A stretch of 64,000 bases of DNA from an uncultured Muribaculaceae bacterium. Its GTDB lineage: Bacteria; Bacteroidota; Bacteroidia; Bacteroidales; Muribaculaceae. Shown piece by piece: positions 22,437 to 35,665 of this stretch. The position numbers and the translations under genes are program-made. The stretch is from the NCBI GenBank assembly GCA_910578075.1, contig CAJTPK010000002.1, positions 46,479 to 110,478 of the forward strand, read 5' to 3'. The notes beneath the pieces were generated by a model that saw nothing but the letters and a program-made list of their open reading frames with translations, did no database searches and was not told where the DNA came from. How positions within the stretch are numbered: position 1 is the first letter of the stretch; every line of letters begins with the position of its first letter.

Positions 22437-22438
22437 TT

Positions 22439-23230
22439 ATGGCACGAGGAAAGCAGACTTGCAAGATATTGAAGGAGATTCGTCGGCAGATAGCCGAAGC
22501 GAATGACATAGAGTTTGTAACGTCGGAGTGTCCCTACAAAGGTGATTGTCTCGGAACGTGTCCGAAATGCGAAGCCGAGGTGCGATATTTAGAGCAACAA
22601 CTTTGTAAGCGACAACTGATGGGTAAAGCCGTTGTGCTTGCCGGATTATCGGCCGGTATGATTGCATTATCAGGCTGCGGCAGTTCCTCAAGTCAGGCCA
22701 ACGACAGTTATAGCCTACAAGGTGAGCCTACGGAGTTGCTTGAGGGTGATGATGAATGGAATGTTGAAGGCGAATTGCCGGTGCAAGAAGTAATAGATTC
22801 AATTAGAGAAGCGGTGATGATGAAAGAGGGAGAGGTAGCCAATATTTCTGATGTTATTGTCACGCAGGGTGAAATGCCGGATGAATTACCTAAAAATCCA
22901 GATGACAGGGATATTTATAACTGTGTTGAACAAATGCCTGAATTTCCGGGAGGTAATGTTGCGATGTTGAATTTTATTGCCAAAAACTTGAAATATCCCA
23001 AAGAACAGTTGGACGCAGGTATTCAAGGAAGAGTTGTCATAAAATTCTATGTTGACACCTTTGGTAATGTTTGTGAGCCAAAGATTGTAAGAGGTAAGGA
23101 CTCTGCATTAGATAGAGAGGCTATCCGTCTTGTCAAATCTTTTCCTCAATTTAGTCCTGGAACACTTAACGGCAGGAAAGTCAATGTATGGTTTACGTTA
23201 CCCATAGTTTTCAAATTACCAGCAGAATAA
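22439..23230 (+). CDS. Membrane protein: five-Cys N-terminal cytoplasmic module, a TM/lipobox-like segment, and a TonB C-terminal domain
   Basis: N-terminus MARGKQTCKILKEIRRQIAEANDIEFVTSECPYKGDCLGTCPKCEAEVRYLEQQL. Hydrophobic AVVLAGLSAGMIALSGC. C-terminus EQMPEFPGG...GIQGRVVIKFYVDTFGNV...RKVNVWFTLPIVF (TonB_C-like). Confidence 0.75.
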   Translation: MARGKQTCKILKEIRRQIAEANDIEFVTSECPYKGDCLGTCPKCEAEVRYLEQQLCKRQLMGKAVVLAGLSAGMIALSGCGSSSSQANDSYSLQGEPTELLEGDDEWNVEGELPVQEVIDSIREAVMMKEGEVANISDVIVTQGEMPDELPKNPDDRDIYNCVEQMPEFPGGNVAMLNFIAKNLKYPKEQLDAGIQGRVVIKFYVDTFGNVCEPKIVRGKDSALDREAIRLVKSFPQFSPGTLNGRKVNVWFTLPIVFKLPAE

Positions 23231-23233
23231 AAT

Positions 23234-24175
23234 ATGGCACGAGGGAAGCAGACCTGCAAGATATTGAAAGAGATTCGTCGGCAGATAGCCGAGGCGAATG
23301 ACATAGAGTTTGTAACGTCGGAGTGTCGTTACAAAGGTGACTGTCTCGGAACCTGTCCGAAATGCGAAGCCGAGGTGCGATATTTGGAGCAACAGCTCCG
23401 CTCCCGTCAACTCATGGGTAAAGCCGTTGTGCTTGCTGGATTATCGGCAGGCGCAATAGCCATGCTTGCTCCTATTGCCGTGCAATCCCAAACTCCCGAC
23501 ACATCTTTGACAAAGGGTTATGTTGCTACTCAGGCAATGGCCGATACTGTCATGGTCAAAGGAGTTGTCCTTGATGGCGATACCTTAAAAGACGGCACTA
23601 TATCAAGAGAGCCTCTGGTAGGTGCTCCAATTATAAATCCACGAACAGGAATTGGTACCTGTTCAAATATTGATGGCAATTTTCAGATAGAGGTTTGCAA
23701 AGGCGACTCTTTGGAAATATCGTATATAGGGTATAATAAACAAAGAGTAATGGTTTTGGATGATACCCCTTTAGAAATAATATTAAATAGTGACGGATTG
23801 CGACTTACCGGAGATGTAGTAGTAATTGGTGCCATATCCGCCCCCGTTGACCGGGAGAATATGCTTGATTTGCATATTCTTGATGAAAATAAAAAGCCAA
23901 TCCCATATGAAGTTGTCACGATAGAACGTGTATATCTTGATGAAGATGGTGAGGAAGATTCTGACTTTCTTGACCCGGTATGGATTGAGGAAAAGGAAGT
24001 ATTCCGTTTTTATTGGAATGAGGATTCTGATTTTCAAGATGAAGATGGCAAGCCACTGAAAGAAGCAATATTGCGTATAGAGGTTGACGGTTACGACAAT
24101 CCCAAAACAATAAAAGTCAAATATCCCAAACGCAACACAAAGAAAACCATCAAGTTCAAACACAAAAGTGAATAA
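23234..24175 (+). CDS. Paralogous membrane protein: same five-Cys N-terminal module, a TM segment, and a CarboxypepD_reg-like domain
   Basis: The first ~215 nt are about 90% identical to 22439-22655. Downstream is VKGVVLDGDT...NIDGNFQIEVCKGDSLEISYIGYNKQRV. Confidence 0.7.
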   Translation: MARGKQTCKILKEIRRQIAEANDIEFVTSECRYKGDCLGTCPKCEAEVRYLEQQLRSRQLMGKAVVLAGLSAGAIAMLAPIAVQSQTPDTSLTKGYVATQAMADTVMVKGVVLDGDTLKDGTISREPLVGAPIINPRTGIGTCSNIDGNFQIEVCKGDSLEISYIGYNKQRVMVLDDTPLEIILNSDGLRLTGDVVVIGAISAPVDRENMLDLHILDENKKPIPYEVVTIERVYLDEDGEEDSDFLDPVWIEEKEVFRFYWNEDSDFQDEDGKPLKEAILRIEVDGYDNPKTIKVKYPKRNTKKTIKFKHKSE

Positions 24176-24180
24176 AAACC

Positions 24181-25353
24181 ATGAAGCTAAATAAATACAT
24201 ATCTTTTTATGCAACTCTGTTGATGTGTTTGATTTTAAATCTATCATCCTGCACAGTTGGCTATAAAAACGATGGCAAGGAAGTGACATGGCATACTTGG
24301 AATGAAGGGAGTGGGCATAACTCACGCAAAGTTGCCGCAGATCCCAACTCGTTTGAGGCTCTTGACGATGATTATGGACGCGATGCAGTACATGCTTTTT
24401 ATGAAGGAGATATCATTGAGGGTGCCGATGGAAGTTCATTCAAAACATTAGGAAATTGGTATGCATCCGATGATAAGCATGTCTATATTTCGGGGAATTT
24501 GATTAACGGAGCTGATGCCACCTCATTCAAAGTCCATCGCTACCGTTTAGGAGAAGACAAGAATGATTTTTACAATGATACCACCGCTCTCAATGTCAGG
24601 GACAAGGTTACTTTTGAAATCCTGAAATATTCATCGGGTAAAGAATCCAGTTATGCAAAGGATAAGTATAACGGATATTACATGAATGGCACTGTTATAC
24701 CGGATATTGATTATCATACATTTCATCCAGTCGATGTAGAATCATGGCAAGACCGTTGCTATGCCGCTGATAAAAATAAGGTCTACTATTATGGAGAAGT
24801 TGTGCCAATGGCTGACCCGGCGACATTCAAGGTCGTAGATTTTGCAATAGGTCAAGACAAGAACCGGGCCTATAAAGGCAAGGAGCCTACTCAAATAAAG
24901 GACTATACTAAATTAGAGAAGGTTGGGCCTGTTATGTACAATGACGGAACCAATATATATGACCTTAATTTCAAAATACTTCCGGATGTTGATGTCGCAA
25001 CATTCGAGCATATTGAGGATAATTGGTATAAAGACAAAAATAAGGTTTGGTGGATGTCTAAGCCTCTGCCGGGAGCAAATCCTCAAACCTTTATGCCTGT
25101 TGAAGTCTCATCATATAAATCTATATCTGGCAAAAAAGACCCATTCAGTGGAGGAGATTTCAACTTTGGAAAGGATGACAAATATGTTTTTTATCAAGAT
25201 TCAATTATTGTCGGAGCTGACCCTATGAGCTTTGAAAAGATTGATTTTCATGACGGAGATAGCTGGACCGTGTTTGACAAAAACAAAGTATATCAAGGGA
25301 AAGATTCTCCAAACAGGAGAAAGTATCTCAAAAAGAAATATGGTAAGCTATGA
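24181..25353 (+). CDS. DKNYY-repeat family protein (secreted or lipoprotein)
   Basis: Signal/lipobox-like LNLSSC. Repeated D(D/K)K(N/H)(K)VYY-type motifs (DDKHVYISG, DKNKVYYYGE, DKNKVWWMSK, DDKYVFYQD, DKNKVYQGK). Confidence 0.65.
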   Translation: MKLNKYISFYATLLMCLILNLSSCTVGYKNDGKEVTWHTWNEGSGHNSRKVAADPNSFEALDDDYGRDAVHAFYEGDIIEGADGSSFKTLGNWYASDDKHVYISGNLINGADATSFKVHRYRLGEDKNDFYNDTTALNVRDKVTFEILKYSSGKESSYAKDKYNGYYMNGTVIPDIDYHTFHPVDVESWQDRCYAADKNKVYYYGEVVPMADPATFKVVDFAIGQDKNRAYKGKEPTQIKDYTKLEKVGPVMYNDGTNIYDLNFKILPDVDVATFEHIEDNWYKDKNKVWWMSKPLPGANPQTFMPVEVSSYKSISGKKDPFSGGDFNFGKDDKYVFYQDSIIVGADPMSFEKIDFHDGDSWTVFDKNKVYQGKDSPNRRKYLKKKYGKL

Positions 25354-26150
25354 AAACCGTAAATGACAATGGTTTTAATCAGTCCATGAACAAGAAATCG
25401 GCTTTTCTGCGGTTCATGCGATATGTAGCTGTGGCATTAGTCTCAGTGACATTATTGTGTGTATTTATACTTAGTATTGGATTGGACGGATTCGATTTGG
25501 ATTTAGCTCTGTTTGCCTTTATTCTAATCTTTTCCAGCCTGTCTTTCATAACATTACCTATTATTGGATTTTGGATATATTCATTTGTCAAAGCCTTTAG
25601 ACGTCGAACAAAAACGGATAAGATTCTTCTGGGGTTCCACATTGTGGATCTGCTCCTGCTGGGAATAATTATATATCTTGCAAACCAACCACATCAGAAA
25701 TGTGATGCTGATATAATGGCTGAATATTATGAAGGTGAAAATGGGTTTTGGATGAGGAATATTGCTACCCGTTATCACAATATTCTCCCTGACAGCACTC
25801 GATTATGTTATGAGATTGATTATGAAAAATCTTACCCCTATGTTTTAAGCGAAGAGGATACAAAGAGGTTGAAAAGAGAGTTGAAAGATTGCGGTTGCAT
25901 AGGTATAGATATTGACAACTACTCCAGCAAAGGGTATTCAACTATCCGATTCCGGCGGATTGGAATGGGGATGTATTCTTACCGCTTCTACGATAAGCCC
26001 TTAACACTCCATGAGCAAGACAGCATCAATAATAACGAGTGCTTTATAGTCTATAATGATTCAACTGTGTTTGAATTTGGTGGTGGTGTCTTTGGAGTAC
26101 AGCACTTTGTCGGAAAAGAAGAATTTAGGGAAAAGTTACACAACTCATAA
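25350..26150 (+). CDS. Hypothetical membrane protein (3 TM plus soluble C-terminal domain)
   Basis: ATGA overlap with the upstream gene. Hydrophobic segments in residues ~25-110. Confidence 0.6.
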   Translation: MKTVNDNGFNQSMNKKSAFLRFMRYVAVALVSVTLLCVFILSIGLDGFDLDLALFAFILIFSSLSFITLPIIGFWIYSFVKAFRRRTKTDKILLGFHIVDLLLLGIIIYLANQPHQKCDADIMAEYYEGENGFWMRNIATRYHNILPDSTRLCYEIDYEKSYPYVLSEEDTKRLKRELKDCGCIGIDIDNYSSKGYSTIRFRRIGMGMYSYRFYDKPLTLHEQDSINNNECFIVYNDSTVFEFGGGVFGVQHFVGKEEFREKLHNS

Positions 26151-26162
26151 ATGGATTAGACA

Positions 26163-26339
26163 ATGGATAACATTGGCAAGCAACTGGCATCTGTGATAAT
26201 CGTATTCTGTGGTATGTTTACGACGATATTTTGCTTTGACTCTCCAAATATGATTACAAATCTGATATTGGTCTGCTCAATCATTTTAATATGCGGCGGC
26301 TTACTTTGGCTGCTTTGGCGGAAAGTAGGTAAGCGATGA
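26163..26339 (+). CDS. Unlisted 58-aa two-TM small protein
   Basis: MDNIGKQLASVIIVFCGMFTTIFCFDSPNMITNLILVCSIILICGGLLWLLWRKVGKR. The stop overlaps the next ATG (ATGA). It falls below the ORF-track length cutoff. Confidence 0.5.
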   Translation: MDNIGKQLASVIIVFCGMFTTIFCFDSPNMITNLILVCSIILICGGLLWLLWRKVGKR

Positions 26340-26635
26340 AACAGCTATACAAAATCAAATGGCTTATAATTGTCTTATCTGGAATAATGTGGGTTGTTTC
26401 ATTCGCAATATTATTTGCCGGAGGGACGGCTATACAAAACAGGATTGCGTTGGCTATAAATCTTGTCATGATTGTATTTCAGATAATGAATTGCTATCGG
26501 GCATTTGTTGTCAATCAGAAAGATGCCGCTATTGCACTTATCGTTTGCCTTCTAATCATACTTATGTTGATGTGGGCGACATATATCTGGGGTTGGAATT
26601 ATACAGTTAAGGCATTAACTATCGGATTTGAATAG
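26336..26635 (+). CDS. Hypothetical small membrane protein (99 aa, ~3 TM)
   Basis: Coupled start. Almost entirely hydrophobic helices. Confidence 0.6.
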   Translation: MKQLYKIKWLIIVLSGIMWVVSFAILFAGGTAIQNRIALAINLVMIVFQIMNCYRAFVVNQKDAAIALIVCLLIILMLMWATYIWGWNYTVKALTIGFE

Positions 26636-26636
26636 C

Positions 26637-26966
26637 ATGAAGGATAAGACGATAAACAATATTATACAAGCATGGTGGAATATTCAAATATTGGTATTCA
26701 TAACCCTGTTTATTCTTGCACCATATCGACCATTCCCGTTGTGGTGTATGATTTGCGCGTGTAGTCTTTTAGTAGTCTGTGCAAATTTAAGATTTCACCG
26801 CAGTTTATATGGCACTTTATCAAAGATTGTCCTTGTGTTATACACTATATCCTATGTTATTGTTGCCTTTATGTTTATCGGTGTTGCATCGCCTAAAATA
26901 TTGCTCGCCATTGTGATTGCTGTTGTAGGGCTAATAAATGTCTTGTGCTGTCTTAAATGGAACTGA
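26637..26966 (+). CDS. Hypothetical small membrane protein (~109 aa, 3 TM)
   Basis: The track start at 26628 is TTG. The ATG at 26637 lies 1 nt after the upstream stop. Confidence 0.6.
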   Translation: MKDKTINNIIQAWWNIQILVFITLFILAPYRPFPLWCMICACSLLVVCANLRFHRSLYGTLSKIVLVLYTISYVIVAFMFIGVASPKILLAIVIAVVGLINVLCCLKWN

Positions 26967-26973
26967 ATATGCT

Positions 26974-27522
26974 ATGGATAAGGTACACTTGATTATAAAA
27001 TGGCTATTTTATCTACTTGCCGCATTAGTGGTTATTGATTTATGGTGTATTGCCATATCAATAGTTTTTACTCTTGTCGGTATGAATGAAAAGTGCTTCC
27101 TGTTAGTCAAGATATTTTCAGCCATTCTCCCTGCTCTGATAATTTGGTCATACGCAGCTTTGTATATTATCATGTATCGAAGAACGGAATATGAAGATAT
27201 TATCTCGGTTGTATGGTCAAAAAGAATTAGGCTTATAATATGGTTGACATTTGGGTATTACAACACCTATCTTCTATCTCTATATTTCGTGAGATTCAGA
27301 TACTCACAGTATGAATTGTTGCAATATCGTGTAAATGTGATATATTCCGTCTTGTCAATGATCCCTATTCTGAATTTAATAGTATATTGGAGAGCAATTC
27401 ATGAATCTGAGATTCGATTATCGTTTATACAAGCTATAACCTTGTATTTTAAGGGAGAACTCATGTCGTATTTGATTAAGGAGAATTACTCACATCTTCT
27501 ACATCGTATAGAAAGCCAATAA
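26974..27522 (+). CDS. Hypothetical membrane protein (~182 aa, 5 TM)
   Basis: I prefer the start MDKVHLIIKWLFYLLAALVVIDLW because the duplicated fragment at 34006 begins at the equivalent ATG. Confidence 0.6.
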   Translation: MDKVHLIIKWLFYLLAALVVIDLWCIAISIVFTLVGMNEKCFLLVKIFSAILPALIIWSYAALYIIMYRRTEYEDIISVVWSKRIRLIIWLTFGYYNTYLLSLYFVRFRYSQYELLQYRVNVIYSVLSMIPILNLIVYWRAIHESEIRLSFIQAITLYFKGELMSYLIKENYSHLLHRIESQ

Positions 27523-27524
27523 AT

Positions 27525-28430
27525 ATGAAGTCTGACAGCAAATTATACCGATTCTTTCTTGGCGAGCGAGGAACAAGAGGTTTGCCAACTGTGGCTATCC
27601 TTATAGTTCTTGTACCGTTTTTGGTTTTCGGATTCTTTTTCAATAATAATAAACGGGAGAATTTGGCGAATAATCCGGTTTCTACAAGAGTGATAATCGA
27701 AGACATTTCAAGTGTTGGCAATTCATGGTCGATCTCCTACCATCTGAATATTGATGGGATTAGTTATAAAGGTAGTGGAAGACGATTAAAAGGGTTGGCC
27801 GTTGGTGATACTATTGGAGTCATGTATCAAAAGAATAATCCAGCCAATAATATGACCGTCTATGATTACTATGACCATAGTGACGATAAATGGCTTATTA
27901 TCATAATTCTTTTGGCTGCCGTTTTAGGCATATATCGTTGGTCAAAAGTAGGAAAAACCAATAACACGATTGAAATACCACAAGATAGAAATGCCAAATG
28001 TCAAATATACCGGACTTCAAAGCACTACATCTTCCTGACGGTTTATTATAGTATTGCAAGCAAACCAATCTATTTTCTATCACACGATTGTACTGATTCA
28101 GAATTTGAGAAAACTATGTTTGACTGTCTTGAAACAAGTGTTAAGAGCAGATATGAAGATATGAAAGCGTCTGAATTGATAAAAGCGATGAAGCAACAGT
28201 CTTGGCGGCAACTGTATCTGAACTCAACCATGTGCCTTGTAGAATATAGCAGTAAAGAATATCTTGGAGATAAATTGTCAATAGAAGTTGGCAAGAGGCG
28301 TAAAGATGGACGAGGTTTTGATTGGGACAGTAGTCGTTCCCGGTCATTCGATATGAAAGAGACCGACTGGCGACAAACAATAGGAATTATCCGAAACATT
28401 TTAGACCCGACAATCAATGAAACTGACTGA
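27525..28430 (+). CDS. Hypothetical membrane protein, DUF3592-like N-terminal module plus soluble C-terminal domain
   Basis: TM, then a beta-rich segment (VSTRVIIEDISSVGNSWSISYHLNIDGISYKGSG...IGVMYQKNNP), then TM, then ~150 aa soluble. Confidence 0.55.
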   Translation: MKSDSKLYRFFLGERGTRGLPTVAILIVLVPFLVFGFFFNNNKRENLANNPVSTRVIIEDISSVGNSWSISYHLNIDGISYKGSGRRLKGLAVGDTIGVMYQKNNPANNMTVYDYYDHSDDKWLIIIILLAAVLGIYRWSKVGKTNNTIEIPQDRNAKCQIYRTSKHYIFLTVYYSIASKPIYFLSHDCTDSEFEKTMFDCLETSVKSRYEDMKASELIKAMKQQSWRQLYLNSTMCLVEYSSKEYLGDKLSIEVGKRRKDGRGFDWDSSRSRSFDMKETDWRQTIGIIRNILDPTINETD

Positions 28431-28929
28431 TAAACGATTTTGGTACGGTACAAAAACGACCTATTATACCTCTTTTATATTTGCATTAAAAGATGCCCTC
28501 CTGTTCTCAATATCATGGGTGTTGGCAATTTGTATAATGTTATTTTCAATCTGCCTATTTATTCAAATGAATAATGGAGATACAATATCCGGTCAGGTCA
28601 TTACATTCGGATTACTCTTCATTCTCATTGTATTTGTTGTTTCAAACGGTATGTTTCTATATGATAATTGGCTTAAGCAATGTTACGTTATGCGAAAGAC
28701 AAAGAGACTTCTACCAGATAGTTGTGTTATTTTGGATACAAAGTATGACAATGTAAACAAGCAATACAAGATAATGCTGGATTATTCAGGAAAGCAGTTT
28801 GTGGTAACAGTAAATTTCCCTTTCTTTTATATATGTGAAAAAGGAACGCGTGCTCTTGGAGCATTGAATATTAATTCAAGAAAGTATTTTGCAAAGAATA
28901 AGTCGGCAATCGTGAATTATATGTCTTAA
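28417..28929 (+). CDS. Hypothetical membrane protein (170 aa)
   Basis: 14-nt overlap with the upstream gene. 3 TM plus a C-terminal beta-rich segment. Confidence 0.55.
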   Translation: MKLTDKRFWYGTKTTYYTSFIFALKDALLFSISWVLAICIMLFSICLFIQMNNGDTISGQVITFGLLFILIVFVVSNGMFLYDNWLKQCYVMRKTKRLLPDSCVILDTKYDNVNKQYKIMLDYSGKQFVVTVNFPFFYICEKGTRALGALNINSRKYFAKNKSAIVNYMS

Positions 28930-29267
28930 TGAAATGTTATATGGCACACTACAATACCCAATTTTGGTTATTATGGTTAATAGGGGCGGTTATGACTTTG
29001 TCAGTCTGCTTATGCTCATCATGGAGTGAAGATACATTGCTCCTTGCTGCGGCGTTTGCCCTGTCGCTGATTTCCATAGCCATTATCCATAAGTTCAGAA
29101 ACCATACTGCATTATGCAATATTCTATTTTGGTTGGGATATAATGCGTTGCTGTGTTACGGGCTGTTGTTCAAAAGCGAGGGTGGCGCAGGACTTACATG
29201 GTGGTTCTATCTGTTATGCCCTAATGTCTTACAGTTTATTTCCGATGCAATTATAGCGTATATCTAA
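28929..29267 (+). CDS. Hypothetical small membrane protein (112 aa, 4 TM)
   Basis: TAATG overlap with the upstream gene. Confidence 0.55.
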   Translation: MKCYMAHYNTQFWLLWLIGAVMTLSVCLCSSWSEDTLLLAAAFALSLISIAIIHKFRNHTALCNILFWLGYNALLCYGLLFKSEGGAGLTWWFYLLCPNVLQFISDAIIAYI

Positions 29268-29729
29268 TAATGAGTAGGTTGCGCTTTATGTATACAAAAC
29301 GGTTAACAGTGCTGTCTGCATCTTCAAATTTAACGGTTTCGGCTCTCTCAAGCGCCCATCTTTACTGAGTGCAAAGTTTGTAATTTTTGACTTAACCTCC
29401 AAACAAAATAGTTAAGATTTGGGGATTCGGTGCAGAAATACCTATATCAATTAGGGGATTTGGTGCAGATTTATTAAATCAAATTTGGGGATTCGGAGTA
29501 TTATGGGTAACGTTCTGTGAAAAATTCTCTTCACGAGTGAACCAACGTTACCTTATATATACAAAGGATTTACGCAAAGATGGCAATATAACTTACCTCC
29601 CGGCATACATGACACAATTTCTATAAATTACCTGCATTTTCTGCATTATCCGCATTTTGGGACAAAAGTCTATCTGTGAAATGTCAGTAAGAAAAAATGG
29701 CTCTGTTGATAGCGGATTATTGGGGTGTG

Positions 29730-29971
29730 ATATTCATAAATCGGCATCTGTCAGGATATAACGGCGATTTTTATACGTGCAACCCACCCTAATGTCAAAT
29801 ATTCTTATTAACTTTGCGATAGGCTCTTATGACAATCCGACAGAAATGCCTCCCGACCGAGCAAAAATAATTGGCATCTCCCGTCATCGCCTCTCCACCG
29901 ACGGCGATGGTGTGACCACGCTTGTCGCTTTCCACGGATGTCCGCTCCGCGACCTTTACTGCCTGAATCCG
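29730..29971 (+). repeat. Direct repeat copy 2 (promoter plus radical SAM 5' end)
   Basis: See 21697-21938. The TAACTTTG box is at 29809-29816. Confidence 0.9.
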
Positions 29972-30007
29972 AACTATTATTTTCAGGGAAGGAGGGTTGC
30001 AAGATGA
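29846..30007 (+). pseudogene. Truncated radical SAM gene remnant (cluster motif destroyed), possibly co-opted as a leader ORF
   Basis: Identical through ...VAFHGCPLR, then DLYCLNPNYYFQGRRVAR*. CPLRCRYC has become CPLRDLYC. The stop overlaps the next ATG (ATGA at 30004-30007). Confidence 0.8.
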
Positions 30008-31360
30008 AACCGATATGGTACATAATTGGTCTTGCCTGTTTTCTAATCTCTGCAATAGCAAGAATGGCAAACTCTATCTCAGATGTGTTAGTTGCAGTTG
30101 GCATTATCGCAGCGATTGGTGTGCTGATTTGGCTATATGAACAAGGTTATATAAAAATCAATTATCGAGTCAAGGAGATAGTTAAAGCCATTTTCAAGTG
30201 GGTTATCATTATCGCAGCCATTTTATATATTGTCTGTTTGATATGTTTTGTCGGATATAAAGCTATAGGAGGAGACGACTATGTTGGCTTGATCGTCATA
30301 GCCTTGGCGGGAGGAATATTTGGCGTGTCGTATTACTTGACACGTTGGCGCAGGTGGTGGATTAAATTCCTGAGAACATTTCTTCGGAAAGATCAGATGA
30401 GCGCCCTTGACTTGAAGTTTGGAGCTGACAGTTATGAAGAATATGATTGCAATAGCGGTGTCAGATACTGCCTCCGTCCGAAAGAAGGCGTATTTATAGG
30501 AACCACTCGCATATTCATATCACCTGATACTCTCGATGATTCCATGAATGAACGGTTAAGGAGATTTGACAATATGCTTCGGGAAAGTGGCATCGAGAAC
30601 ACACTCAACGTAGATTACACCGATGGTTGTATTTATGCGGACGTGTCGGTAACAGTAGATTGCCGACGAATGAATGTTGAAAAACAGACACTCTTACGCA
30701 ATGCGTTTATCTACCTTAAAGACAGTAATTATCAAGGCGATTACTTTGGGAAATATGTTGGAGAATACGGAACAATATTATTTCAATCAACAGCAGTCGA
30801 AATTATCCGTGCTGTAAGGGTAAAACCGCGTGAGGAATATTATATTTATCCCGACAGTGGTTTTCAATCGGAAGATGCGTATCTATTTATCGGAAGATGC
30901 GTATCTATTTATTGAATACTATCCGGACTGGACTAACGGTGAATACACACTCATAGCTGAAAAAGAGTTTTTCAGTCGATGGCGTAAGCGTACAGAATTT
31001 GATAATAAAGATCAAGCATATACCGATTTTGATGTATCTTCAACCGCCTATTTTGCTGCGATTGAAAATGGAGATAAAAAGGAGCAAAAATACAGTCGGG
31101 AAGACATAGAGAAGGCGGCTTTATGGTTAATCCGATACGATGAAGTTGATTATATTAAAGAATTGCTGTCAAATCCACATGATGAAACAGAATATTGGGC
31201 TGCCCGCTTTTTCCACGATGTCATTCCTGAACTTGCTGAAGCTATGGCTCAAACCCTTGTGGATAACTGCGACAAGCCGGTAATAGCAGCAAACGCCAAA
31301 CGACTGTTGGCTCAGTGGAGAAAAAATAAACAAGAAAAAGATAGCACTACGATAAGATGA
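30004..31360 (+). pseudogene. Membrane protein gene (4 TM plus large soluble domain) split by a 22-bp tandem duplication
   Basis: SEDAYLFI is encoded twice in two frames. Removing one copy of cggaagatgcgtatctatttat fuses 30004-30915 with 30830-31360 into a 444-aa ORF. The downstream track ORF starts with GTG. Confidence 0.7.
30869..30912 (+). repeat. Perfect 22-bp tandem duplication (2 copies)
   Basis: cggaagatgcgtatctatttat at 30869-30890 and again at 30891-30912. Confidence 0.95.
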
Positions 31361-32277
31361 AAGAATCTCTCCGTTATAAAGTATGCCTATGGATAGTGTG
31401 GGTGCAACTCGCACTCATACCTACTGTATATCTTATGATGTGGGTGGTCGATGGTACACCTTATATCTGGCGATGGAATCTTTTGTCTTGGGCTATCTTT
31501 ACAGGCTATCTGATTGGCTTCATCGCTTTGCCATTAAGTCGTGGTCTTGACAAACCTAAACTCTTAAAATGGTGGTTGCGGATTGATTTTGTAGCCTCAA
31601 TACTACTTTTTATACCTTTCTATTTCACGTTCATGGCGTCAAAGGCTAATTTTGTATCTGAAAGAGGTAAGTATATTCTATTTACAACAGGTGGAGGAAT
31701 GGCAAAGCCGACACTTAGGTTAGGAAAATCATATGGGTTATTTATCAAAGAATTATATAATTCAGATGCTGTGGCATTTGATATAAATGCTGAAGATTGG
31801 TTTGTTAATGAAGATTATGGTTATAGCAGCCTAAAAACTACTTACGATACTTATAAAAGTATCCATGTGTTTCCGATTGACAGTTCAGCTTATCACCAAC
31901 ATAATAATGTTATTGACACACAGATTGATAGCATATTTCATGCAAACATAATCGGTTATGACAAAATGGAATTTGTTATGCCGAAAGATTTTTCAACAAT
32001 CGAATACCGAGACAGCTCCAGTATTGAATATCACAGATCCGACTATATTCAGTTAGCAGAAATAGAGTATCGTTCATTCGGAAAAGGAAATCTTTTGGAT
32101 TCAGTATTGATAACCCTTTCTGTATCAAAAAATGACATATTATCGATAACTGACTCAGATACATTATTGGTGGAGAGAGTTGAAACGGAGAGACAAATAA
32201 AGATCCCGAAAGAATCTGTGCCGTGGATGTCTCCGACTGAAGTACATCGGTTCTTGAACGATTTGAAAAGGAGGTAA
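31357..32277 (+). CDS. Hypothetical membrane protein (306 aa; 4 TM plus soluble domain)
   Basis: ATGA overlap with the upstream ORF. Confidence 0.6.
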   Translation: MKESLRYKVCLWIVWVQLALIPTVYLMMWVVDGTPYIWRWNLLSWAIFTGYLIGFIALPLSRGLDKPKLLKWWLRIDFVASILLFIPFYFTFMASKANFVSERGKYILFTTGGGMAKPTLRLGKSYGLFIKELYNSDAVAFDINAEDWFVNEDYGYSSLKTTYDTYKSIHVFPIDSSAYHQHNNVIDTQIDSIFHANIIGYDKMEFVMPKDFSTIEYRDSSSIEYHRSDYIQLAEIEYRSFGKGNLLDSVLITLSVSKNDILSITDSDTLLVERVETERQIKIPKESVPWMSPTEVHRFLNDLKRR

Positions 32278-32280
32278 GCG

Positions 32281-32727
32281 ATGAAAACTGACGGATATAT
32301 TTTCAAAGATAGTTGGCTGGAATATATTTTATATGGCATATTATTGTGCCCTTTTATATGTCTATGGGTCAGTCTTGACACATTCCCATTTGGAGACAAA
32401 GGAGCTGTCGGATTATTTATTTTCATAATGGCTTTCATTATGATTTTGACCTTCTCTATATGGGGCATTGTTAAACATCCGAATCGACTGATAATTGGCA
32501 ACGATGGAATACATTATTATTGCCGTAGAGTTACATTGTCAAACAATTCATCGTTTTGGATTGATAATTATAAGCTTTATTCATGGGAGAAAATTCAAGG
32601 GTTCTATTTCGAATGGATGATGGCGCGTGGTGTTATGTCACATCGTTATCTTGTTCTTGAACATGAACATGATAAGGCAGCTTTTATACGATTAAACGAC
32701 TTAACCGGAAAAAATATGAGTATATAA
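32281..32727 (+). CDS. Hypothetical membrane protein (2 TM plus bPH-like domain), probably frameshifted at an A6 tract
   Basis: 148 aa as written. A +1 A at 32709-32714 would extend it to 32888, adding a C-terminal TM. Confidence 0.55.
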   Translation: MKTDGYIFKDSWLEYILYGILLCPFICLWVSLDTFPFGDKGAVGLFIFIMAFIMILTFSIWGIVKHPNRLIIGNDGIHYYCRRVTLSNNSSFWIDNYKLYSWEKIQGFYFEWMMARGVMSHRYLVLEHEHDKAAFIRLNDLTGKNMSI

Positions 32728-32887
32728 GTGCTATTGAGGAATGTAGCGATGGAAAATGTTTGTTAAACAGGGCAAAATATAACGAGAACAGAAAGATACG
32801 AAATAGATCATTGTGGAAATACTACATATTTCCGTTATTGATAGGAATAGCCCTTGCAATGTTACTGAATAAATTCGGAGTCAGATA

Positions 32888-33439
32888 ATGGAAAGCATAT
32901 TCCGGTATATTGTAATAATAGCCATAGCCTTTATGATAGGCAAGGAGGTGTTTCGGTCAATCAGGCAAAAGTCTGTTGACCGGTGTATTCTTGCGATAAT
33001 CGTGCTGTTTGGAATTGTGATTTTCATGAGCCGTAGTTTTTTAGTTTCTATTAGGAGTTATGGTTATCTCGAAATATGTATAACTGTCCTCGTTATCTTG
33101 GCATATCTTTTAGAGAGGTCAACGAAAATCTACAAACTGATTAGAGGTATGTCGATAGCAAGTCTTTTAGTGGCCATATCAGTCTTTACGTATTGGAATA
33201 TAAAGGCTCAGAAGATAACTGGTGAAATTGACATCGTAGAGTTGAATGGATTTACAATGGGGAGATTTGAGGAAGTTTTGTTCAAGTATGATGGTGAGCC
33301 ATTTAGTCGTCATTGCAGTTTGAAAGACTATTCAAGCAACGATGATTTGATGGATCGCTATAATGTGAAGTTAACGCTCAAACCACTTTACCCTCACATT
33401 GTCAAGTTAGAGTCTATTACCCTAATCCCTAAAGAATGA
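32888..33439 (+). CDS. Hypothetical membrane protein (183 aa; 4 TM plus soluble domain)
   Basis: ATG start; ATGA overlap with the next gene. Confidence 0.6.
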   Translation: MESIFRYIVIIAIAFMIGKEVFRSIRQKSVDRCILAIIVLFGIVIFMSRSFLVSIRSYGYLEICITVLVILAYLLERSTKIYKLIRGMSIASLLVAISVFTYWNIKAQKITGEIDIVELNGFTMGRFEEVLFKYDGEPFSRHCSLKDYSSNDDLMDRYNVKLTLKPLYPHIVKLESITLIPKE

Positions 33440-33996
33440 TTACGCATAATAACCAATATATAGCAAAAGAATCGCTGACGTTTCCACTGTTGGTAACGGT
33501 GATGTTTGGCGTGTCTTTATATGCTTCTATCTATGCACCTAAATTTTGGTGCATATTTGGTGCGGTCTTTTTCGGTTTGGGTGTGGCTGTATATGCCTAT
33601 AAATATATCCGCTATGGTAGAACCACGCTAATAATTTACAGCGAGGGAATAACAATAAAGGACTGGGGCAAGACCAAAACATATAATTGGTGGTGGGATA
33701 TAGTGAGCGTCTATACCAATTGGAACGTATCTTATTTTGCTCGTTTCGTGGAAAGATGGCTAAGAATCAAAACTTCAGTAAATGGTGAACAGTTTGAGTT
33801 CCACGATATTTGCCTATCCGATCTGTATTGCCGAAGCAAAAGTGTTCGTAAGGCGATTGAAAAATATGCAGGGCCGTCTCGTTTCGATTATGAGGCTTCA
33901 CAAGAAACAAAAAGTTATGTGTCTAAGATAGTGCTGCTGGCATCGATAGTCGCTGTTATTGGAATATTCATTTGCTTAACCTATTTTTCAGAGTGA
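33436..33996 (+). CDS. Hypothetical membrane protein (2 TM plus bPH-like domain plus C-terminal TM)
   Basis: 186 aa. Its architecture parallels the repaired 32281 gene. Confidence 0.6.
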   Translation: MITHNNQYIAKESLTFPLLVTVMFGVSLYASIYAPKFWCIFGAVFFGLGVAVYAYKYIRYGRTTLIIYSEGITIKDWGKTKTYNWWWDIVSVYTNWNVSYFARFVERWLRIKTSVNGEQFEFHDICLSDLYCRSKSVRKAIEKYAGPSRFDYEASQETKSYVSKIVLLASIVAVIGIFICLTYFSE

Positions 33997-34005
33997 TTCA
34001 ATGCT

Positions 34006-34104
34006 ATGGGTAAGGTACACTTAATTATAAAATGGCTATTTTATCTACTTGCCGCATTAGTGGCTATTGACTTATGGTGTATTGCCGATGCAGAAATTGT
34101 ATAA
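34006..34104 (+). pseudogene. Duplicated 5' fragment of the 26974 gene (32 codons)
   Basis: MGKVHLIIKWLFYLLAALVAIDLWCIADAEIV* compares with MDKVHLIIKWLFYLLAALVVIDLWCIAISIVF... There is ~90-nt nucleotide similarity between 34001-34089 and 26969-27057. Confidence 0.75.
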
Positions 34105-34134
34105 AGATTGATTTTAAGATAAGTTTAGACAATT

Positions 34135-34593
34135 TCAATTCTTTAAAATCTTCTTTTTTAGATATATCATGTCATTTAATGTCACGCCTTCTTCAATTAT
34201 CGGGTGATCATAATTGTTGGTGAAAAATCCCGGTATTGTGTGGGAGAAAACATAACCGCAGTTCTTGTAAAAGCGCAATGTCGATGGGGTTTCACCGGTG
34301 CCGAGTTGCAAAGTTTTGCCCTGGTATATAGACTCAACATGATCGAGCATTCTTCTTCCGATGCCCTGCCGTCTGTATTCAGAAATGACAGCGAGATTTT
34401 TTATCTCAATCGTAGTGTAGTCTTCTTCAGTTATGGCACAGCAGGAAACCGGTGTTTCGTTTATAAATCCAATGAAAAGTCGTCCATAGTCAAGATACCG
34501 GTCAATCATATCCTCTTGCTCATCACCGATAAGCAAAAGATTCATATATTTATATTTGGAAACCAATATTTCCCTGATTTCGAAATCTGTCAT
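34135..34593 (-). CDS. GNAT-family N-acetyltransferase
   Basis: Acetyl-CoA motif YRRQGIGRRML. I prefer the start MTDFEIREIL over the upstream ATG at 34620. Confidence 0.8.
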   Translation of the reverse strand: MTDFEIREILVSKYKYMNLLLIGDEQEDMIDRYLDYGRLFIGFINETPVSCCAITEEDYTTIEIKNLAVISEYRRQGIGRRMLDHVESIYQGKTLQLGTGETPSTLRFYKNCGYVFSHTIPGFFTNNYDHPIIEEGVTLNDMIYLKKKILKN

Positions 34594-34699
34594 GATAAAA
34601 CAAATAAAAGTCCGTTTCATGAAAAATTTAGCTTTAGTGTACGGACTCTAAGAGAATAACTTTGCTTTTTACTTTTTATTTGATGCTAAAGGGTGTAGA

Positions 34700-35309
34700 C
34701 TCAGCGTCTCTGCGTGATTAAAATTTTAACGCAGAGGAGCGGAGGAGGGGAGTTTCAGCCTTGATGTTTTAGCGACGCTGGAATCGCGTGGCGATTCTTG
34801 CCGAGGCGCGGAGACGTCGCTAAAATTTGTCGCGGTTTTTATAGACCAAAGATCCATAGGAACCAAAGCATTGCCGAGTATGCTTTCGTCTCAGACTATT
34901 CGCAACGGCTCTGCGCCTTCGCAGGAGTGGTAACGACCTCCGCGCCGAATTGAGCGGCATAAAACCTTTGCGGCTCAGCGTCTCTGCGTGATTAAATTTT
35001 TAACGCAGAGGAGCGGAGGAGGAGAGTTTTAGCCTCGACGTTTTAGCGACGCTGGAATCGCGTGGCGATTCTTGCCGAGGCGCGGAGACGTCGCTAAAAT
35101 TTGTCGCGGTTTTTATAGACCAAAGATCCATAGGAACCAAAGCATTGCCGAGTATGCTTTCGTCTCGGACTATTCGCAACGGCTCTGCGCCTTCGCAGGA
35201 GTGGTAACGACCTCCGCGCCGGATTGAGCGGCATAAAACTTTGCGACTCAGCGTCTCTGCGTGATTAAAATTTTAACGCAGAGGAGCGGAGGAGGGGAGT
35301 TTCAGCCTT
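34700..35309 (+). repeat. Tandem repeat, ~274-bp unit x ~2.2 (family B repeat, expanded form)
   Basis: Units start at 34700, 34974 and 35247 with ctcagcgtctctgcgtgattaaaatttta-acgcagagg. Internal hairpins ttttagcgacg...cgtcgctaaaa and gaatcgcgtggcgattc. Confidence 0.9.
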
Positions 35310-35422: not shown

Positions 35423-35430
35423 TAACTTTG
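35423..35430 (+). promoter_or_regulatory. Bacteroidetes-type -7 promoter box (TAACTTTG) for the B12 operon
   Basis: The context tttgtaactttgcc sits immediately upstream of the riboswitch. Confidence 0.5.
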
Positions 35431-35436
35431 CCGATG

Positions 35437-35600
35437 AAAGCGGTTGGCCGTTGGCCATTAAAAGGGAACCGGGTGTGAATCCCGGACAGTCCCGCTGCGG
35501 TAAGTCTCTGTAAGACTTCGGCAAACATCTCTTTAAGCCACTGACAATGGTCGGGAAGGCATGCCGGATGTCGAGACAAGTCCGAAGACCTGCCGTTTTC
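35437..35600 (+). promoter_or_regulatory. Cobalamin (B12) riboswitch
   Basis: Conserved core AAAAGGGAACCGGGTGTGAATCCCGGACAGTCCCGC, plus GCCACTG...GGGAAGGC and the B12 box AAGTCCGAAGACCTGCC. It lies upstream of btuB. Confidence 0.85.
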
Positions 35601-35665
35601 GGGGAAGTAGTTCCAAAGGTGCTCTTTCCGGTATGTTGAACACTCTTTCGAGGAAAAGAGAACAT

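Follow-up and report, generated by a model that had tools for sequence, protein, structure and literature searches.

A two-unit mosaic array of membrane-protein cassettes in a mouse-gut Muribaculaceae genome most resembles, by association, orphan immunity islands

The window analysed here (the whole stretch of 64,000 nt, from a mouse-gut Muribaculaceae genome) carries a chromosomal array flanked by housekeeping genes. Fifteen co-oriented, tightly packed ORFs lie between 24181 and 33996, all on the plus strand, and represent 14 genes because ORFs 29938-30915 and 30830-31360 belong to a single broken gene. The features are listed below, where f numbers are protein families; L numbers, used further on, are related loci and contigs.

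20341-20904, plus strand: Crp/Fnr-family (cNMP-binding) regulator (Pfam cNMP_binding, E 6e-6), recurrent at the heads of related arrays
21744-22436, plus strand: small radical-SAM (rSAM) enzyme, glycyl-radical-activase-like, without a SPASM domain; conserved head gene 1 (Pfam Radical_SAM, E 8e-18)
22439-23230, plus strand: head gene 2, Cys-rich N-terminal domain, TM segment and TonB_C (Pfam, E 1.6e-18)
23234-24175, plus strand: head gene 3, same Cys-rich N-terminal domain, TM segment and CarboxypepD_reg-like domain (Pfam CarbopepD_reg_2, E 2e-10)
24181-25353, plus strand: cassette A, DKNYY, lipoprotein-like, 390 aa (Pfam DKNYY, E 8e-46; f7, 8 loci)
25350-26150, plus strand: cassette B, 266 aa, about 3 TM and a soluble tail (f11, 6 loci)
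26163-26339, plus strand: cassette C, 58 aa, 2 TM (f2, 10 loci), frequently placed directly behind the head
26336-26635, plus strand: cassette D, 99 aa, 3 TM (f9, 7 loci)
26637-26966, plus strand: cassette E, 109 aa, about 4 TM (f37, 3 loci)
26938-27522, plus strand: cassette F, 194 aa, about 4 TM; 5' end duplicated at 34001-34086
27525-28430, plus strand: cassette G, 301 aa, TM, beta domain, TM, alpha/beta domain, weakly DUF3592-like (f3, 10 loci)
28417-28929, plus strand: cassette H, 170 aa, 2 TM and a 75-aa soluble domain; begins with the 27-nt leader ATGAAACTGACTGATAAACGATTTTGG
28929-29267, plus strand: cassette I, 112 aa, 2-3 TM, 3'-truncated; alignment with related genes breaks off at about 29240
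29240-29729, no strand: spacer between units, with a 33-nt tandem repeat (2.4 copies) at 29417-29496
29730-29970, plus strand: remnant of a second head, rSAM upstream region and first ~65 codons, 98% identical to 21697-21937
30004-31360, plus strand: cassette J (including ORF "K"), 444-aa gene, 4 TM and a large soluble domain, reading frame disrupted by a perfect 22-nt tandem duplication at 30867-30910
31357-32277, plus strand: cassette L, 306 aa, 3 TM and a beta-rich soluble domain (f1, 15 loci; 73 homologue clusters)
32281-32885, plus strand: cassette M, ~200-aa gene, 2 TM, frameshifted near 32680-32712; the called ORF stops at 32727
32888-33439, plus strand: cassette N, 183 aa, 4-5 TM and a tail (f10, 7 loci)
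33436-33996, plus strand: cassette O, 186 aa, 2 N-terminal TM, soluble domain and C-terminal TM, weakly STM3941/bPH-like (f4, 10 loci)
34001-34086, plus strand: fragment, second copy (86 nt) of the cassette F 5' end, 95% identical, bracketing a 7,032-nt segment with 26969-27054
34135-34620, minus strand: GNAT acetyltransferase (Pfam), 3' boundary of the array, accompanying cassettes J-O in other contexts

An earlier note on this DNA, made from the sequence alone, had described about 15 plus-strand ORFs with overlapping or tiny-gap junctions. All 15 were called, the gene count fell to 14, and the close packing was confirmed. The junctions in order were -4, +12, -4, -8 (+1 counted from the ATG at 26637), -29, +2, -14 and -1 nt, followed by the mid-array gap of 670 nt (736 nt if measured to the likely ATG at 30004) and by -4, +3, +160 and -4 nt. 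The higher AT content judged by eye was borne out by calculation, with a GC of 0.373 in the array and 0.462 in the remaining window ORFs, and the mostly membrane character of the products by Kyte-Doolittle hydropathy, which predicted at least two TM segments in 13 of the 14 genes. The products were mutually unrelated in an all-against-all BLASTP comparison. Among the modules previously recognised, DKNYY was retained, while the DUF3592-like and bPH-like assignments rest on sub-threshold matches (a cassette G homologue to DUF3592, E 0.003; cassette O to NCBIfam STM3941_fam, E 5e-7, below cutoff). The window ORFs scanned showed no toxin, T6SS, Rhs or tyrosine-recombinase domain, as the note had stated. 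No window protein matched Imm, CdiI or other immunity models in Pfam or NCBIfam, and no window array protein matched a PADLOC or PHROG family. None of the 126 homologue clusters of cassette G had a precomputed Pfam hit, two bore names (both mouse-gut Bacteroidales), and its AF2 model was poor (pLDDT 57). The cluster of cassette O at 90% identity or more includes proteins of Sangeribacter muris and B. acidifaciens, and in L056 a separate 76-aa ORF consists of the C-terminal domain of cassette H alone (55% identical).

Sequence comparison resolves the array into two units fused head to tail at 29240-30003. Unit 1 comprises an intact head (the rSAM and two TonB-like Cys-rich-domain proteins) with cassettes A-I, and unit 2 a head remnant with cassettes J-O. 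The remnant (241 nt) covers 47 nt upstream of the rSAM gene and 5' coding sequence, and in L036 an intact head occupies its position, following the same F-G-H-I block. The same head fragment lies upstream of J, there intact, in B. acidifaciens L110 (94%), and L032 and L040 each hold two copies of it. Cassette I belongs to a family (f6) that is commonly last in arrays, and the first 136 nt of the ~490-nt spacer are ~80% identical to the region upstream of the array carried by an integrative conjugative element (ICE) in L016-L019. At the 3' end, the 34001-34086 fragment is 98% identical to the start of F in L036; alternative flanks for the GNAT/J-O context were seen in L011/L249 and L246. The two-unit fusion had not been noticed in the earlier note.

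Gene fragments and two frameshifts, both reported previously, were confirmed. The array holds three fragments in total (29730-29970, 34001-34086 and the truncated gene at 28929-29267). Cassette J is inactivated by its 22-nt tandem duplication; an intact 444-aa homologue is present in B. acidifaciens, and most full-length homologue clusters measure 430-445 aa. What looks like a +160-nt "gap" belongs to M, whose 3' end continues out of frame to 32885; the L057 homologue aligns across two frames. Together with the J duplication, this shows that both frameshifts are real.

The ORFs had been called orphans, a description that missed the trio at 21744-24175, which lies 5 nt upstream in the same orientation (24175/24181) and makes the array part of a widespread head-anchored architecture. 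The rSAM gene matched NCBIfam PFLE_PFLC (E 7e-39, below the model cutoff). The N-terminal 219 nt of head gene 2 are 91% identical to head gene 3, and this Cys-rich domain had no Pfam match but was matched by 2,721 50%-identity cluster representatives (E<=0.001). A search with it returned 78 loci in Muribaculaceae, Bacteroides, Barnesiella and Prevotellaceae, in which a small rSAM gene and one to five membrane proteins of the TonB_C or CarboxypepD_reg type precede 0-17 low-GC ORFs in the same orientation. An rSAM homologue adjoined the Cys-rich-domain genes in 69 of the 78 loci, and head gene 3 homologues were present in 58. In an uncultured Duncaniella sp. the upstream regulator bears the name Crp/Fnr. 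The window regulator shares 49% identity with the one immediately preceding the L016 ICE-borne array, and a similar regulator heads a 17-gene array in L241/L242.

Array GC was below flank GC in 25 of 27 loci. When pooled, the 337 array proteins fell into 138 families in mosaic arrangement, which shows a cassette pool of more than 100 unrelated families whose order varies from array to array, whether the array follows this head or a Crp/Fnr regulator or rides on a conjugative element. Every window family recurs in other arrays, the K fragment excepted. At least two TM segments were predicted in 56% of array proteins, compared with 12% of other ORFs in the same loci. By Pfam on family representatives, the commonest pool family was Imm32 (17 members in 13 loci), with other matches to DUF2750/Imm16, CdiI_3 and DUF4304. 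Arrays holding relatives of window genes contained Imm32, Imm16/DUF2750, Imm40 and CdiI_3, e.g. the L041 array (C-f8-N-L-A-Imm16-f33-Imm32-...-G), a pentapeptide and Imm40 protein adjoining a cassette G homologue, and an ICE-borne array containing CdiI_3 and headed by a cassette J homologue. The gene at L061:17656-18417 joins a 4-TM module to a C-terminal domain that shares 61% identity with the GGD-motif (Imm40 signature) domain at L016:9133-10011, which suits an immunity domain tethered to the membrane. A survey for homologues beside effectors found no toxin, Rhs, PAAR or T6SS gene next to window-cassette homologues in the dozen or so distinct genomic contexts inspected. Array neighbours also include a DUF1016/YhcG nuclease, a HEPN/MNT pair and a Schlafen/AlbA_2-HATPase_c_4 protein.

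A 27-nt in-frame leader (MKLTDKRFW) or an SD-like junction is common to many unrelated cassettes. The leader stands at the start of at least 13 unrelated families, matched 84 times on the array strand and never on the opposite one, and was found in at least 119 metagenome contigs at ORF starts inside co-oriented arrays. Among 2.9 million viral contigs searched for it, the leader occurred in 6 and the head domain in none.

Integrative conjugative or mobilizable elements carry related arrays (L016-L019, L106-L109, L239), among them arrays that hold homologues of G, L or J. Blocks of the window are 90-93% nucleotide-identical overall to other Duncaniella and Bacteroides acidifaciens, e.g. 90.5% for 29731-32287 against a B. 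acidifaciens contig and 92.6% for the F-G-H-I block against another Duncaniella. The dS of array genes was 0.08-0.34; that of the neighbouring SDR gene was 0.95, from a different comparison (window and Palleniella L044). The dN/dS ratio was 0.12-0.45 in eight array genes and 0.11-0.20 in the rSAM gene, with 0.15 for cassette B (92.6% amino-acid identity to Duncaniella L032), 0.16 for F (94% to L036) and 0.28 for L (against B. acidifaciens). These alignments show purifying selection on the array genes and their recent transfer from one bacterial family to another. The rapid turnover proposed before holds between species, whereas the contigs L001-L015, fetched by two protein look-ups with 23 contigs read in each, were 99.5-100% identical to the window; invariance within its own species argues against strong ongoing diversifying pressure there.

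Published polyimmunity (Zhang et al. 2012, PMC3482391) and rAID (Ross et al. 2019, bioRxiv 10.1101/471110; PMC12247911) loci are described as co-oriented, tightly packed, low-GC runs of immunity genes, and the array matches these and downstream-rAID-1 descriptions in orientation, in junctions that overlap or span 12 nt or less, in being uninterrupted by a toxin and in low GC. As in heterogeneous polyimmunity loci, its genes are tandem, closely spaced, structurally unrelated, toxin-free and variable between genomes, and Imm32, Imm16, Imm40 and CdiI-type genes occur in sibling arrays; however, those loci are defined by known, mostly cytoplasmic globular immunity domains, which no window gene and only a minority of pool families match. 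It shares with rAID-1 a mosaic, horizontally exchanged repertoire, the lack of a toxin gene and immunity families in sibling arrays, but the 5' end has the rSAM and TonB_C/CarboxypepD_reg trio or a Crp/Fnr regulator in place of a XerD-like tyrosine recombinase, the near absence of intergenic DNA leaves no intergenic repeats, the shared sequence is instead the leader or SD-like junction, and the products are mostly membrane proteins without homology to known T6SS immunity genes. Identity with rAID-1 was rejected, since the defining recombinase, toxin and T6SS gene are lacking within the window. AID-1/AID-2 orphan immunity clusters likewise travel on mobile elements as near-identical blocks across species, but their genes, closely homologous to B. 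fragilis GA3 immunity genes, have been shown to protect (Ross et al. 2019); nothing comparable is recognisable here, and the window copy is chromosomal. Integron arrays are similar as promoter-proximal stacks of promoterless, co-oriented, unrelated cassettes with recurrent boundaries and mosaic order; here IntI integrase, attI and attC hairpins are absent, and the cassette borders fall within coding sequence, where stop and start codons overlap or at the leader. Cassettes C, D, E and I (58-112 aa, 2-4 TM) fit pore-forming-colicin immunity proteins and 2-TM Imm17/CdiI types in size and topology, a likeness of topology with no sequence match.

By association, the array most resembles the orphan immunity islands used by gut Bacteroidales against the toxins of rivals. 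We give about even chances to the reading that it is a heterogeneous polyimmunity or acquired-interbacterial-defence-like locus, one of a family of mosaic cassette arrays that gut Bacteroidales exchange horizontally, in this case chromosomal and lacking a recombinase. Of the options offered earlier, the comparative data favour this one, through the Imm/CdiI genes of sibling arrays and carriage as mobile cargo, with the reservation that no window protein itself matches an immunity family. Long polycistronic messages might arise from the head promoter and its putative internal copy, with translation coupled through overlapping stop/start codons. Each product would be an inner-membrane-anchored protein neutralising one incoming toxin, possibly by blocking its membrane insertion or entry, as pore-forming-colicin immunity proteins and 2-TM Imm17/CdiI types act at the membrane, or alternatively by holding a small binding domain there. 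Changes in the repertoire may come from recombination at the recurring leader, junction and head sequences, with no dedicated recombinase involved. Several points count against the immunity reading. Only ~15% of pool family representatives had any Pfam hit, so most of the pool could have another role; classical polyimmunity and rAID products are mostly soluble and cytoplasmic, whereas these are almost all membrane proteins; the one usable structure model (cassette L, pLDDT 77) had no fold match in PDB or BFVD; and two of the 14 genes are frameshifted and one is truncated.

To our knowledge, tight linkage to an rSAM/TonB-like head is also without precedent in immunity islands. The adjacency and shared orientation of head and array could instead mean that the cassettes are accessory parts of a head-run envelope system, in which the rSAM would act on the Cys-rich cytoplasmic domains of the TonB-like proteins, modifying or activating them, and the cassettes would be interchangeable partners, e.g. 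substrate-specific adaptors, sensors or stress factors. The frequent pairing of rSAM and Cys-rich-domain genes ahead of arrays in several bacterial families agrees with this, as do head 5' fragments kept inside arrays, travel of the head with arrays on ICEs and the DKNYY cassette placed between rSAM and Cys-rich-domain gene in L044. We consider it fairly unlikely, given that many heads are followed by a very short array or none, that headless arrays of the same cassettes exist (L016, L020, L026, L239, L241), that cassette content is mosaic and mostly unshared between species, unlike machine subunits, and that soluble toxin-immunity families share these arrays.

Superinfection-exclusion factors are typically small N-terminally anchored membrane proteins, and carriage by conjugative elements and the nuclease, HEPN/MNT and Schlafen neighbours are what phage- or conjugation-exclusion (superinfection-exclusion or abortive-infection-like) defence cargo might show. 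The phage-exclusion option of the earlier note nevertheless found no support and seems improbable: the sole PADLOC/PHROG matches fit the Schlafen/HATPase protein or the rSAM, apart from a few weak matches to unnamed PHROG families that were not assigned to any protein, the markers are nearly absent from viral contigs, and the recognisable sibling-array families are anti-toxin rather than anti-phage. That the array is decaying, functionless acquired DNA hitch-hiking at a permissive site is very improbable. The frameshifted and truncated genes, two gene fragments, spacer, atypical composition and lack of any functional annotation found for the array would suit such decay, but dN/dS ratios are comparable to that of the rSAM gene, the locus is near-identical across many mouse-gut samples, and 11 of the 14 genes are intact and conserved across species and families at 40-93% amino-acid identity.

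The ORFs of the window form an uninterrupted run on the plus strand from 24181 to 33996, in which neighbouring ORFs overlap by up to 29 nt or are separated by no more than 12 nt. There are two exceptions, 670 nt (29268-29937) between cassettes I and J (the array genes being lettered A-O in order) and 160 nt at 32728-32887. A homologue of ORF 32281-32727 matches the window in one frame to about position 32712 and in another frame on to 32885, so this gene (cassette M) is frameshifted and the 160-nt stretch does not count as intergenic. ORFs 29938-30915 and 30830-31360 are a single gene (cassette J) split by a perfect 22-nt tandem duplication at 30867-30910. Homologues of J with 436-437 aa span both halves in two frames, uninterrupted 444-aa versions are present in Bacteroides acidifaciens contigs, and most full-length homologue clusters measure 430-445 aa. 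With the two ORFs of J counted as one gene, the array has 14 genes, of which 11 are intact, two are frameshifted and one (cassette I, 28929-29267) loses homology to its relatives near the 3' end, about 28 nt ahead of the stop codon.

Array genes had a GC content of 0.32-0.41 (mean 0.373), compared with a mean of 0.462 for the other window ORFs, and at least two transmembrane (TM) segments were predicted by hydropathy in 13 of the 14. The products are mutually unrelated by BLASTP. The first is a DKNYY lipoprotein-like protein (DKNYY E 8e-46); Pfam and NCBIfam searches over all 15 ORFs otherwise returned sub-threshold matches only, and homologues of ten window families added nothing except DUF3592 at E 0.003. 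No toxin, T6SS, Rhs or recombinase domain was observed among the window ORFs scanned, and the array is flanked by housekeeping genes (SusC/D, DXP synthase, cobalamin uptake and synthesis, ETF, acyl-CoA dehydrogenase).

Directly upstream of the array (21744-24175) lie three genes, here called the head: a small radical-SAM (rSAM) enzyme of the glycyl-radical-activase type and two paralogues. At the N terminus both paralogues carry the same Cys-rich domain (MARGKQTCKILKEIRRQIAEAND...CLGTCPKCE), which is highly conserved; after it come a TM helix and either a TonB_C or a CarboxypepD_reg domain. The Cys-rich domain, which no Pfam model matches, is about 60 aa long with C8, C31 and C37xxxC41xxC44 (window 22439-22650 and 23234-23445; head loci L028-L105), and its CxxxCxxC spacing resembles the radical-SAM cluster motif. 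It matched 2,721 representatives of 50%-identity clusters, 1,829 of them at E<=1e-10. Among the best 150 matches the domain is 72-96% identical and the rest of the protein diverges, and a small SPASM-less radical-SAM gene almost always adjoins the gene that encodes it. A hyper-polymorphic character of these proteins was ruled out, the C-termini being mainly of two types (TonB_C and CarboxypepD_reg), and a PDB-sequence profile search with the TonB-like head protein recovered only TonB C-terminal domains. A DMP19-family ORF lies between the rSAM and TonB-like genes in L107-L109, and an MNT/HEPN toxin-antitoxin pair precedes one head (L022, 2842-3403). In contigs L241 and L242 (3733-6423) nrdD-nrdG lies immediately upstream of a Crp/Fnr-headed array; NrdG is another small activase-type radical-SAM enzyme.

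Two fragments, one of the head and one of an array gene, were found in and just beyond the array:

29730-29970, a 241-nt copy, 98% identical, of the rSAM gene's upstream 47 nt and its first ~65 codons
34001-34086, an 86-nt copy, 95% identical, of the 5' end of gene 26938 (cassette F)

The two copies of the F 5' end bracket exactly 7,032 nt. In the locus L036 of another Duncaniella, the block F-G-H-I (92.6% identity) ends at a point equivalent to window position 29240 and is followed by an intact head, while the window retains only the first 241 nt of this second head. The intact head of L036 and the remnant in the window together indicate that the window array is two fused units. Unit 1 comprises head-A-B-C-D-E-F-G-H-I, and unit 2 the head remnant-J-L-M-N-O followed by the F fragment. 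This head fragment also stands before the intact J in B. acidifaciens, and it occurs twice each in loci L032 and L040. The first 136 nt of the spacer between I and J resemble the region upstream of an ICE-borne array (L016). Ahead of the head remnant the spacer also holds 2.4 copies of a 33-nt repeat (29417-29496; ATTTGGGGATTCGGTGCAGAAATAC...), which was ruled out as a general regulatory site because among the fetched loci it was observed only in this species' locus.

The earlier note had described a same-strand, tightly packed, AT-rich array of membrane proteins with gene fragments and two frameshifts but no effector, Rhs/T6SS or recombinase gene, and this description was borne out, the GC difference now by calculation. 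Its roughly 15 ORFs correspond to 14 genes. Among its domain calls the DKNYY-like one stood, while the DUF3592-like and bPH-like ones were found below threshold only, and the duplicated segment that it called a promoter is a putative one.

Several parts of the array have close relatives in other bacterial families. Window 29731-32287 (head remnant, J and L) has 90.5% nucleotide identity to a contig with proteins named from B. acidifaciens, in which the identity for cassette O is 92%, and both cassette M and the rSAM gene are about 91% identical to Palleniella (Prevotellaceae). Synonymous divergence was 0.08-0.34 for the array genes and 0.95 for the neighbouring SDR gene (vs Palleniella), and dN/dS was 0.12-0.45 for array genes and 0.11-0.20 for rSAM. 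Together, these identities and values indicate that the cassettes encode constrained proteins which moved recently between bacterial families. Cassette O (33436-33996) has 186 aa in the window, and its relatives from Sangeribacter muris and B. acidifaciens (P0269-P0278, a cluster at >=90% identity) have 286-291 aa, so the family also exists with an additional ~100 aa, arising from either a fusion or an alternative start.

The window locus itself is 99.5-100% identical in 15 contigs (L001-L015, taken from two protein look-ups with 23 contigs read by each), and turnover is therefore visible between species but not within the window's species. Strain-level cassette variation, suspected from differing gene calls, was ruled out by this identity. 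The rapid turnover proposed in the earlier note thus applies between species, where differences in array content were large (the arrays of L241 and L242 also differ), and not within its own. Mouse-gut metagenomes and MAGs are the source of the contigs that are identical to the window. The Crp/Fnr regulator upstream of the head belongs to a cluster (at least 90% identity) named from an uncultured Duncaniella sp.; the closest head-domain locus, at 99% identity, is from a MAG labelled 'uncultured Porphyromonadaceae bacterium', and the remaining best matches are Muribaculaceae MAGs. These matches make a Duncaniella-like member of the Muribaculaceae the most probable source. In one MAG (GCA_949057975.1, L011/L249) cassettes J-O and the following GNAT gene (cf. 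window 29790-34752) are 99.7% identical and lie beside response-regulator/SprA, and in a metagenome contig (L246) the GNAT end of this block adjoins an SLT/LysM-ParAB context. These changed flanks represent either true relocation or assembly mis-joins.

A scan with the head N-terminal domain, using one genome per species, yielded 255 relatives from which 78 loci were kept. These were mostly from Muribaculaceae (Duncaniella, Muribaculum, Paramuribaculum, Sangeribacter, Heminiphilus) and also included Barnesiella, Palleniella and Bacteroides or Prevotella MAGs. The rSAM gene was adjacent to the Cys-rich-domain genes in 69 of the 78 loci, with 0-17 co-oriented ORFs downstream of the head at a GC mostly of 0.32-0.45. 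Array GC was below that of the rest of the locus in 25 of the 27 loci with at least four such ORFs, and in most loci was about 0.39-0.41 irrespective of the GC of the host flanks (0.42 to 0.55). Clustering of 337 array proteins gave 138 families, 80 of them singletons, and about 85% of the families had no Pfam match (one representative each). The arrays are mosaic, their strings of family labels showing the same families in varied orders and combinations, and homologues of each window cassette were present in 2-17 of the 78 loci. At least two TM segments were predicted in 172 of 305 array proteins (56%), compared with 143 of 1,146 other ORFs of the same loci (12%).

At least 13 unrelated families start with near-identical DNA, ATGAAACTGACYGATAAACGATTTTGG, encoding MKLTDKRFW. 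The homology of this leader extends from the ATG over about 27-30 nt. With up to 3 mismatches, its 20-mer core had 84 occurrences in the fetched loci, every one of them on the array strand. In the window the leader heads cassette H, and G and M begin with degenerate versions. Exact matches were found in at least 119 metagenome contigs, many labelled human gut; among the matches listed, the leader stood at the starts of 62-544-aa ORFs inside co-oriented arrays, which also hold Imm32, CdiI_3, DKNYY and TonB_C proteins. A second type of junction, AAAGGAGGTAAGCG-ATGAAA, places a Shine-Dalgarno-like (SD-like) sequence inside the 3' end of the upstream ORF. The AAAGGAGGTAAGCG-ATGA form was observed at window 25336-25355, 26322-26341 and 32267-32286, and also in L076, L089 and L093. 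Since little use of SD pairing is generally assumed for Bacteroidetes, this embedded junction is unusual; it could be a coupling signal or a mere recombination scar. The leader, the SD-like junction and the head fragments would provide the homology by which cassettes are shuffled and stacked. A sigma-70 promoter scan gave slightly more than the shuffled expectation and a terminator scan no more than that expectation, both with models ill-suited to Bacteroidetes, and the Bacteroidetes -33/-7 pattern matched once, outside the array, which is below chance.

Recognised immunity families co-occur with window families in these arrays. Imm32 was the commonest pool family with 17 members in 13 loci (Pfam, one representative per family), and other matches among the representatives were DUF2750, CdiI_3, DUF4304, DUF1877 and bPH_4, of which DUF2750 is listed as Imm16 (Zhang et al. 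2012, PMC3482391). One locus (L041) has the order C-f8-N-L-A-Imm16-f33-Imm32-f34-f23-f35-G-f14-f30-(pentapeptide/Imm40), the f-numbers being cassette families. A G homologue adjoins a pentapeptide+Imm40 protein in contigs with a protein named from B. caecimuris, in an array headed by a Crp/Fnr regulator (49% identical to that of the window) and lying between Tra genes and a relaxase/integrase module. Human-gut contigs with a 34% identical L homologue carry a head-plus-array unit, including DUF2750 and DUF1877, between TraG and relaxase/integrase genes. A J homologue with 85% identity heads a CdiI_3-containing array on another mobilizable element, and one with 45% identity belongs to an array with a Crp/Fnr regulator at its head and about 17 genes, which is not the same in the two contigs that hold it. 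In the protein at L061:17656-18417 a 4-TM module is fused to a C-terminal domain with 61% identity to the GGD-motif domain of the pentapeptide/Imm40 protein, GGD being the Imm40 signature (Zhang et al. 2012, PMC3482391), and the soluble tail of window cassette H occurs elsewhere as a stand-alone 76-aa ORF. Membrane anchors are linked to immunity domains by such domain shuffling. Imm or CdiI matches were confined to the sibling arrays, with none for the window cassettes in Pfam or NCBIfam.

[quoted passage not shown] 2019, 10.1101/471110). The window array is similar in its 14 plus-strand genes and in its GC of 0.32-0.41 per gene. Its 5' neighbours are instead rSAM, TonB_C and CarbopepD_reg proteins, Phage_integrase had no match in the window ORFs scanned on either side, and without the recombinase the array falls outside the definition of rAID-1. 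The intergenic repeats by which rAID-1 are described also set them apart from the in-frame leader and SD-like junction of the window array, where most junctions overlap or leave at most 12 nt, and Pfam and NCBIfam models gave no immunity homology for the cassettes. Assignment of the leader-bearing human-gut arrays to rAID-1 was not established: their common 5' ORFs of ~321-333 aa are not integrases, and Phage_integrase matched only once among 90 representatives. Heterogeneous polyimmunity loci consist of tandem genes in the same orientation with small intergenic distances, never interrupted by a toxin; their members come from recognised immunity families, vary in number and type even between close strains, and protect against cognate toxins (Zhang et al. 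2012, PMC3482391). The window array has this layout (tandem, co-oriented, short gaps, no toxin gene) but no recognised immunity family, while its sibling arrays hold Imm32, Imm16, Imm40 and CdiI_3. An integron has IntI and flanking attC; neither was found here, a repeat search gave no inverted-repeat sites between cassettes, and the array is therefore not an integron. In the literature searched, neither a radical-SAM gene nor Muribaculaceae was linked to immunity arrays, and work on rAID, AID-1/2 and polyimmunity described no rSAM/TonB-like head, shared in-frame leader or Muribaculaceae arrays.

We give an even chance to the reading that the array is a recombinase-less, membrane-biased variant of a polyimmunity or acquired-interbacterial-defence island; a putative promoter in the head would drive its expression, and recombination at the shared junctions would diversify it. 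The case for an immunity role is one of association: genes for Imm32, Imm16, Imm40 and CdiI_3 occur in the same arrays, arrays are carried on ICEs, composition and packing fit, and in one protein an Imm40-like domain is tethered to the membrane. The resemblance to an immunity island raised in the earlier note thus gained from the company in sibling arrays and from ICE carriage, but no window protein matched an immunity family and no cognate toxin was found. Its phage-exclusion option fared worse. PADLOC, whose results are family-level counts rather than per-protein tables, gave no cassette match, its hits fitting only rSAM families or the Schlafen/HATPase protein at 18478-19890; nothing in PHROG was attributable to the cassettes, the leader occurred in only 6 of 2.9 million viral contigs, and the head domain in none. 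Structure and profile searches added no assignment: the model of cassette L (pLDDT 77, three TM helices and a beta-rich domain) had no Foldseek match in PDB or BFVD better than E 0.005 and TM 0.2, the model of G was unusable (pLDDT 57), and PDB-sequence profile searches with families G and L gave no match. In the main rival reading, which we regard as unlikely, the head of rSAM and TonB-like proteins would have an envelope function in which the cassettes assist. This is kept alive by the persistent linkage of head and array; head-less arrays and the mosaic cassette content both weaken it.

A bolder form of the defence-island reading, which we offer tentatively and regard as rather unlikely, makes these arrays a distinct class of interbacterial defence that needs no recombinase. 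The 27-nt leader (MKLTDKRFW) and SD-like junctions would allow in-frame exchange of membrane-anchored immunity cassettes, and these would be stacked by recombination at the conserved head, which would supply the promoter and may sense or energise a response to envelope attack. If true, this would be a new mechanism of acquisition and would bring with it a large number of membrane immunity families so far unknown; Muribaculaceae and Bacteroides would then be expected to have membrane-targeting toxins that are likewise unknown. The mouse gut is dominated by Muribaculaceae, and to our knowledge almost nothing is known of how they resist antagonism. If the arrays are defensive, they hold more than 100 unannotated protein families, mostly membrane-anchored, point to membrane-acting toxins not yet described, and represent immunity islands that are assembled and exchanged with no rAID recombinase, also among Muribaculaceae, Bacteroidaceae and Prevotellaceae; the 27-nt leader and the rSAM/TonB-like head are handles for finding such islands in metagenomes. 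If they are not, gut Bacteroidales commonly carry an envelope system, as yet uncharacterised, made up of a conserved head and variable membrane cassettes.

Further features were observed on either side of the array. The gene at 18478-19890, just upstream of the Crp/Fnr regulator, encodes a 470-aa protein with Schlafen/AlbA_2, HATPase_c_4 and wHTH domains, probably the source of the PADLOC pAgo-associated and SIR2-PNTD-type hits, and the array spacer (29350-29390) holds a second copy, 80% identical, of 41 nt that lie upstream of this gene (18233-18273). Downstream, between the GNAT gene and a cobalamin riboswitch, a 274-nt tandem repeat (34698-35308; 2.2 copies, 96% identity) holds a GC-rich inverted repeat in every unit, and different gene spacing in contig L245 suggests that its copy number varies. 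Downstream of the riboswitch (35424-35611; Rfam RF00174, 104.5 bits) come a TonB-dependent receptor and a cluster for cobalamin ABC transport and synthesis. The listed ORF 35561-37663 begins within the riboswitch, so its real start is probably further downstream; public gene calls give 649 aa.
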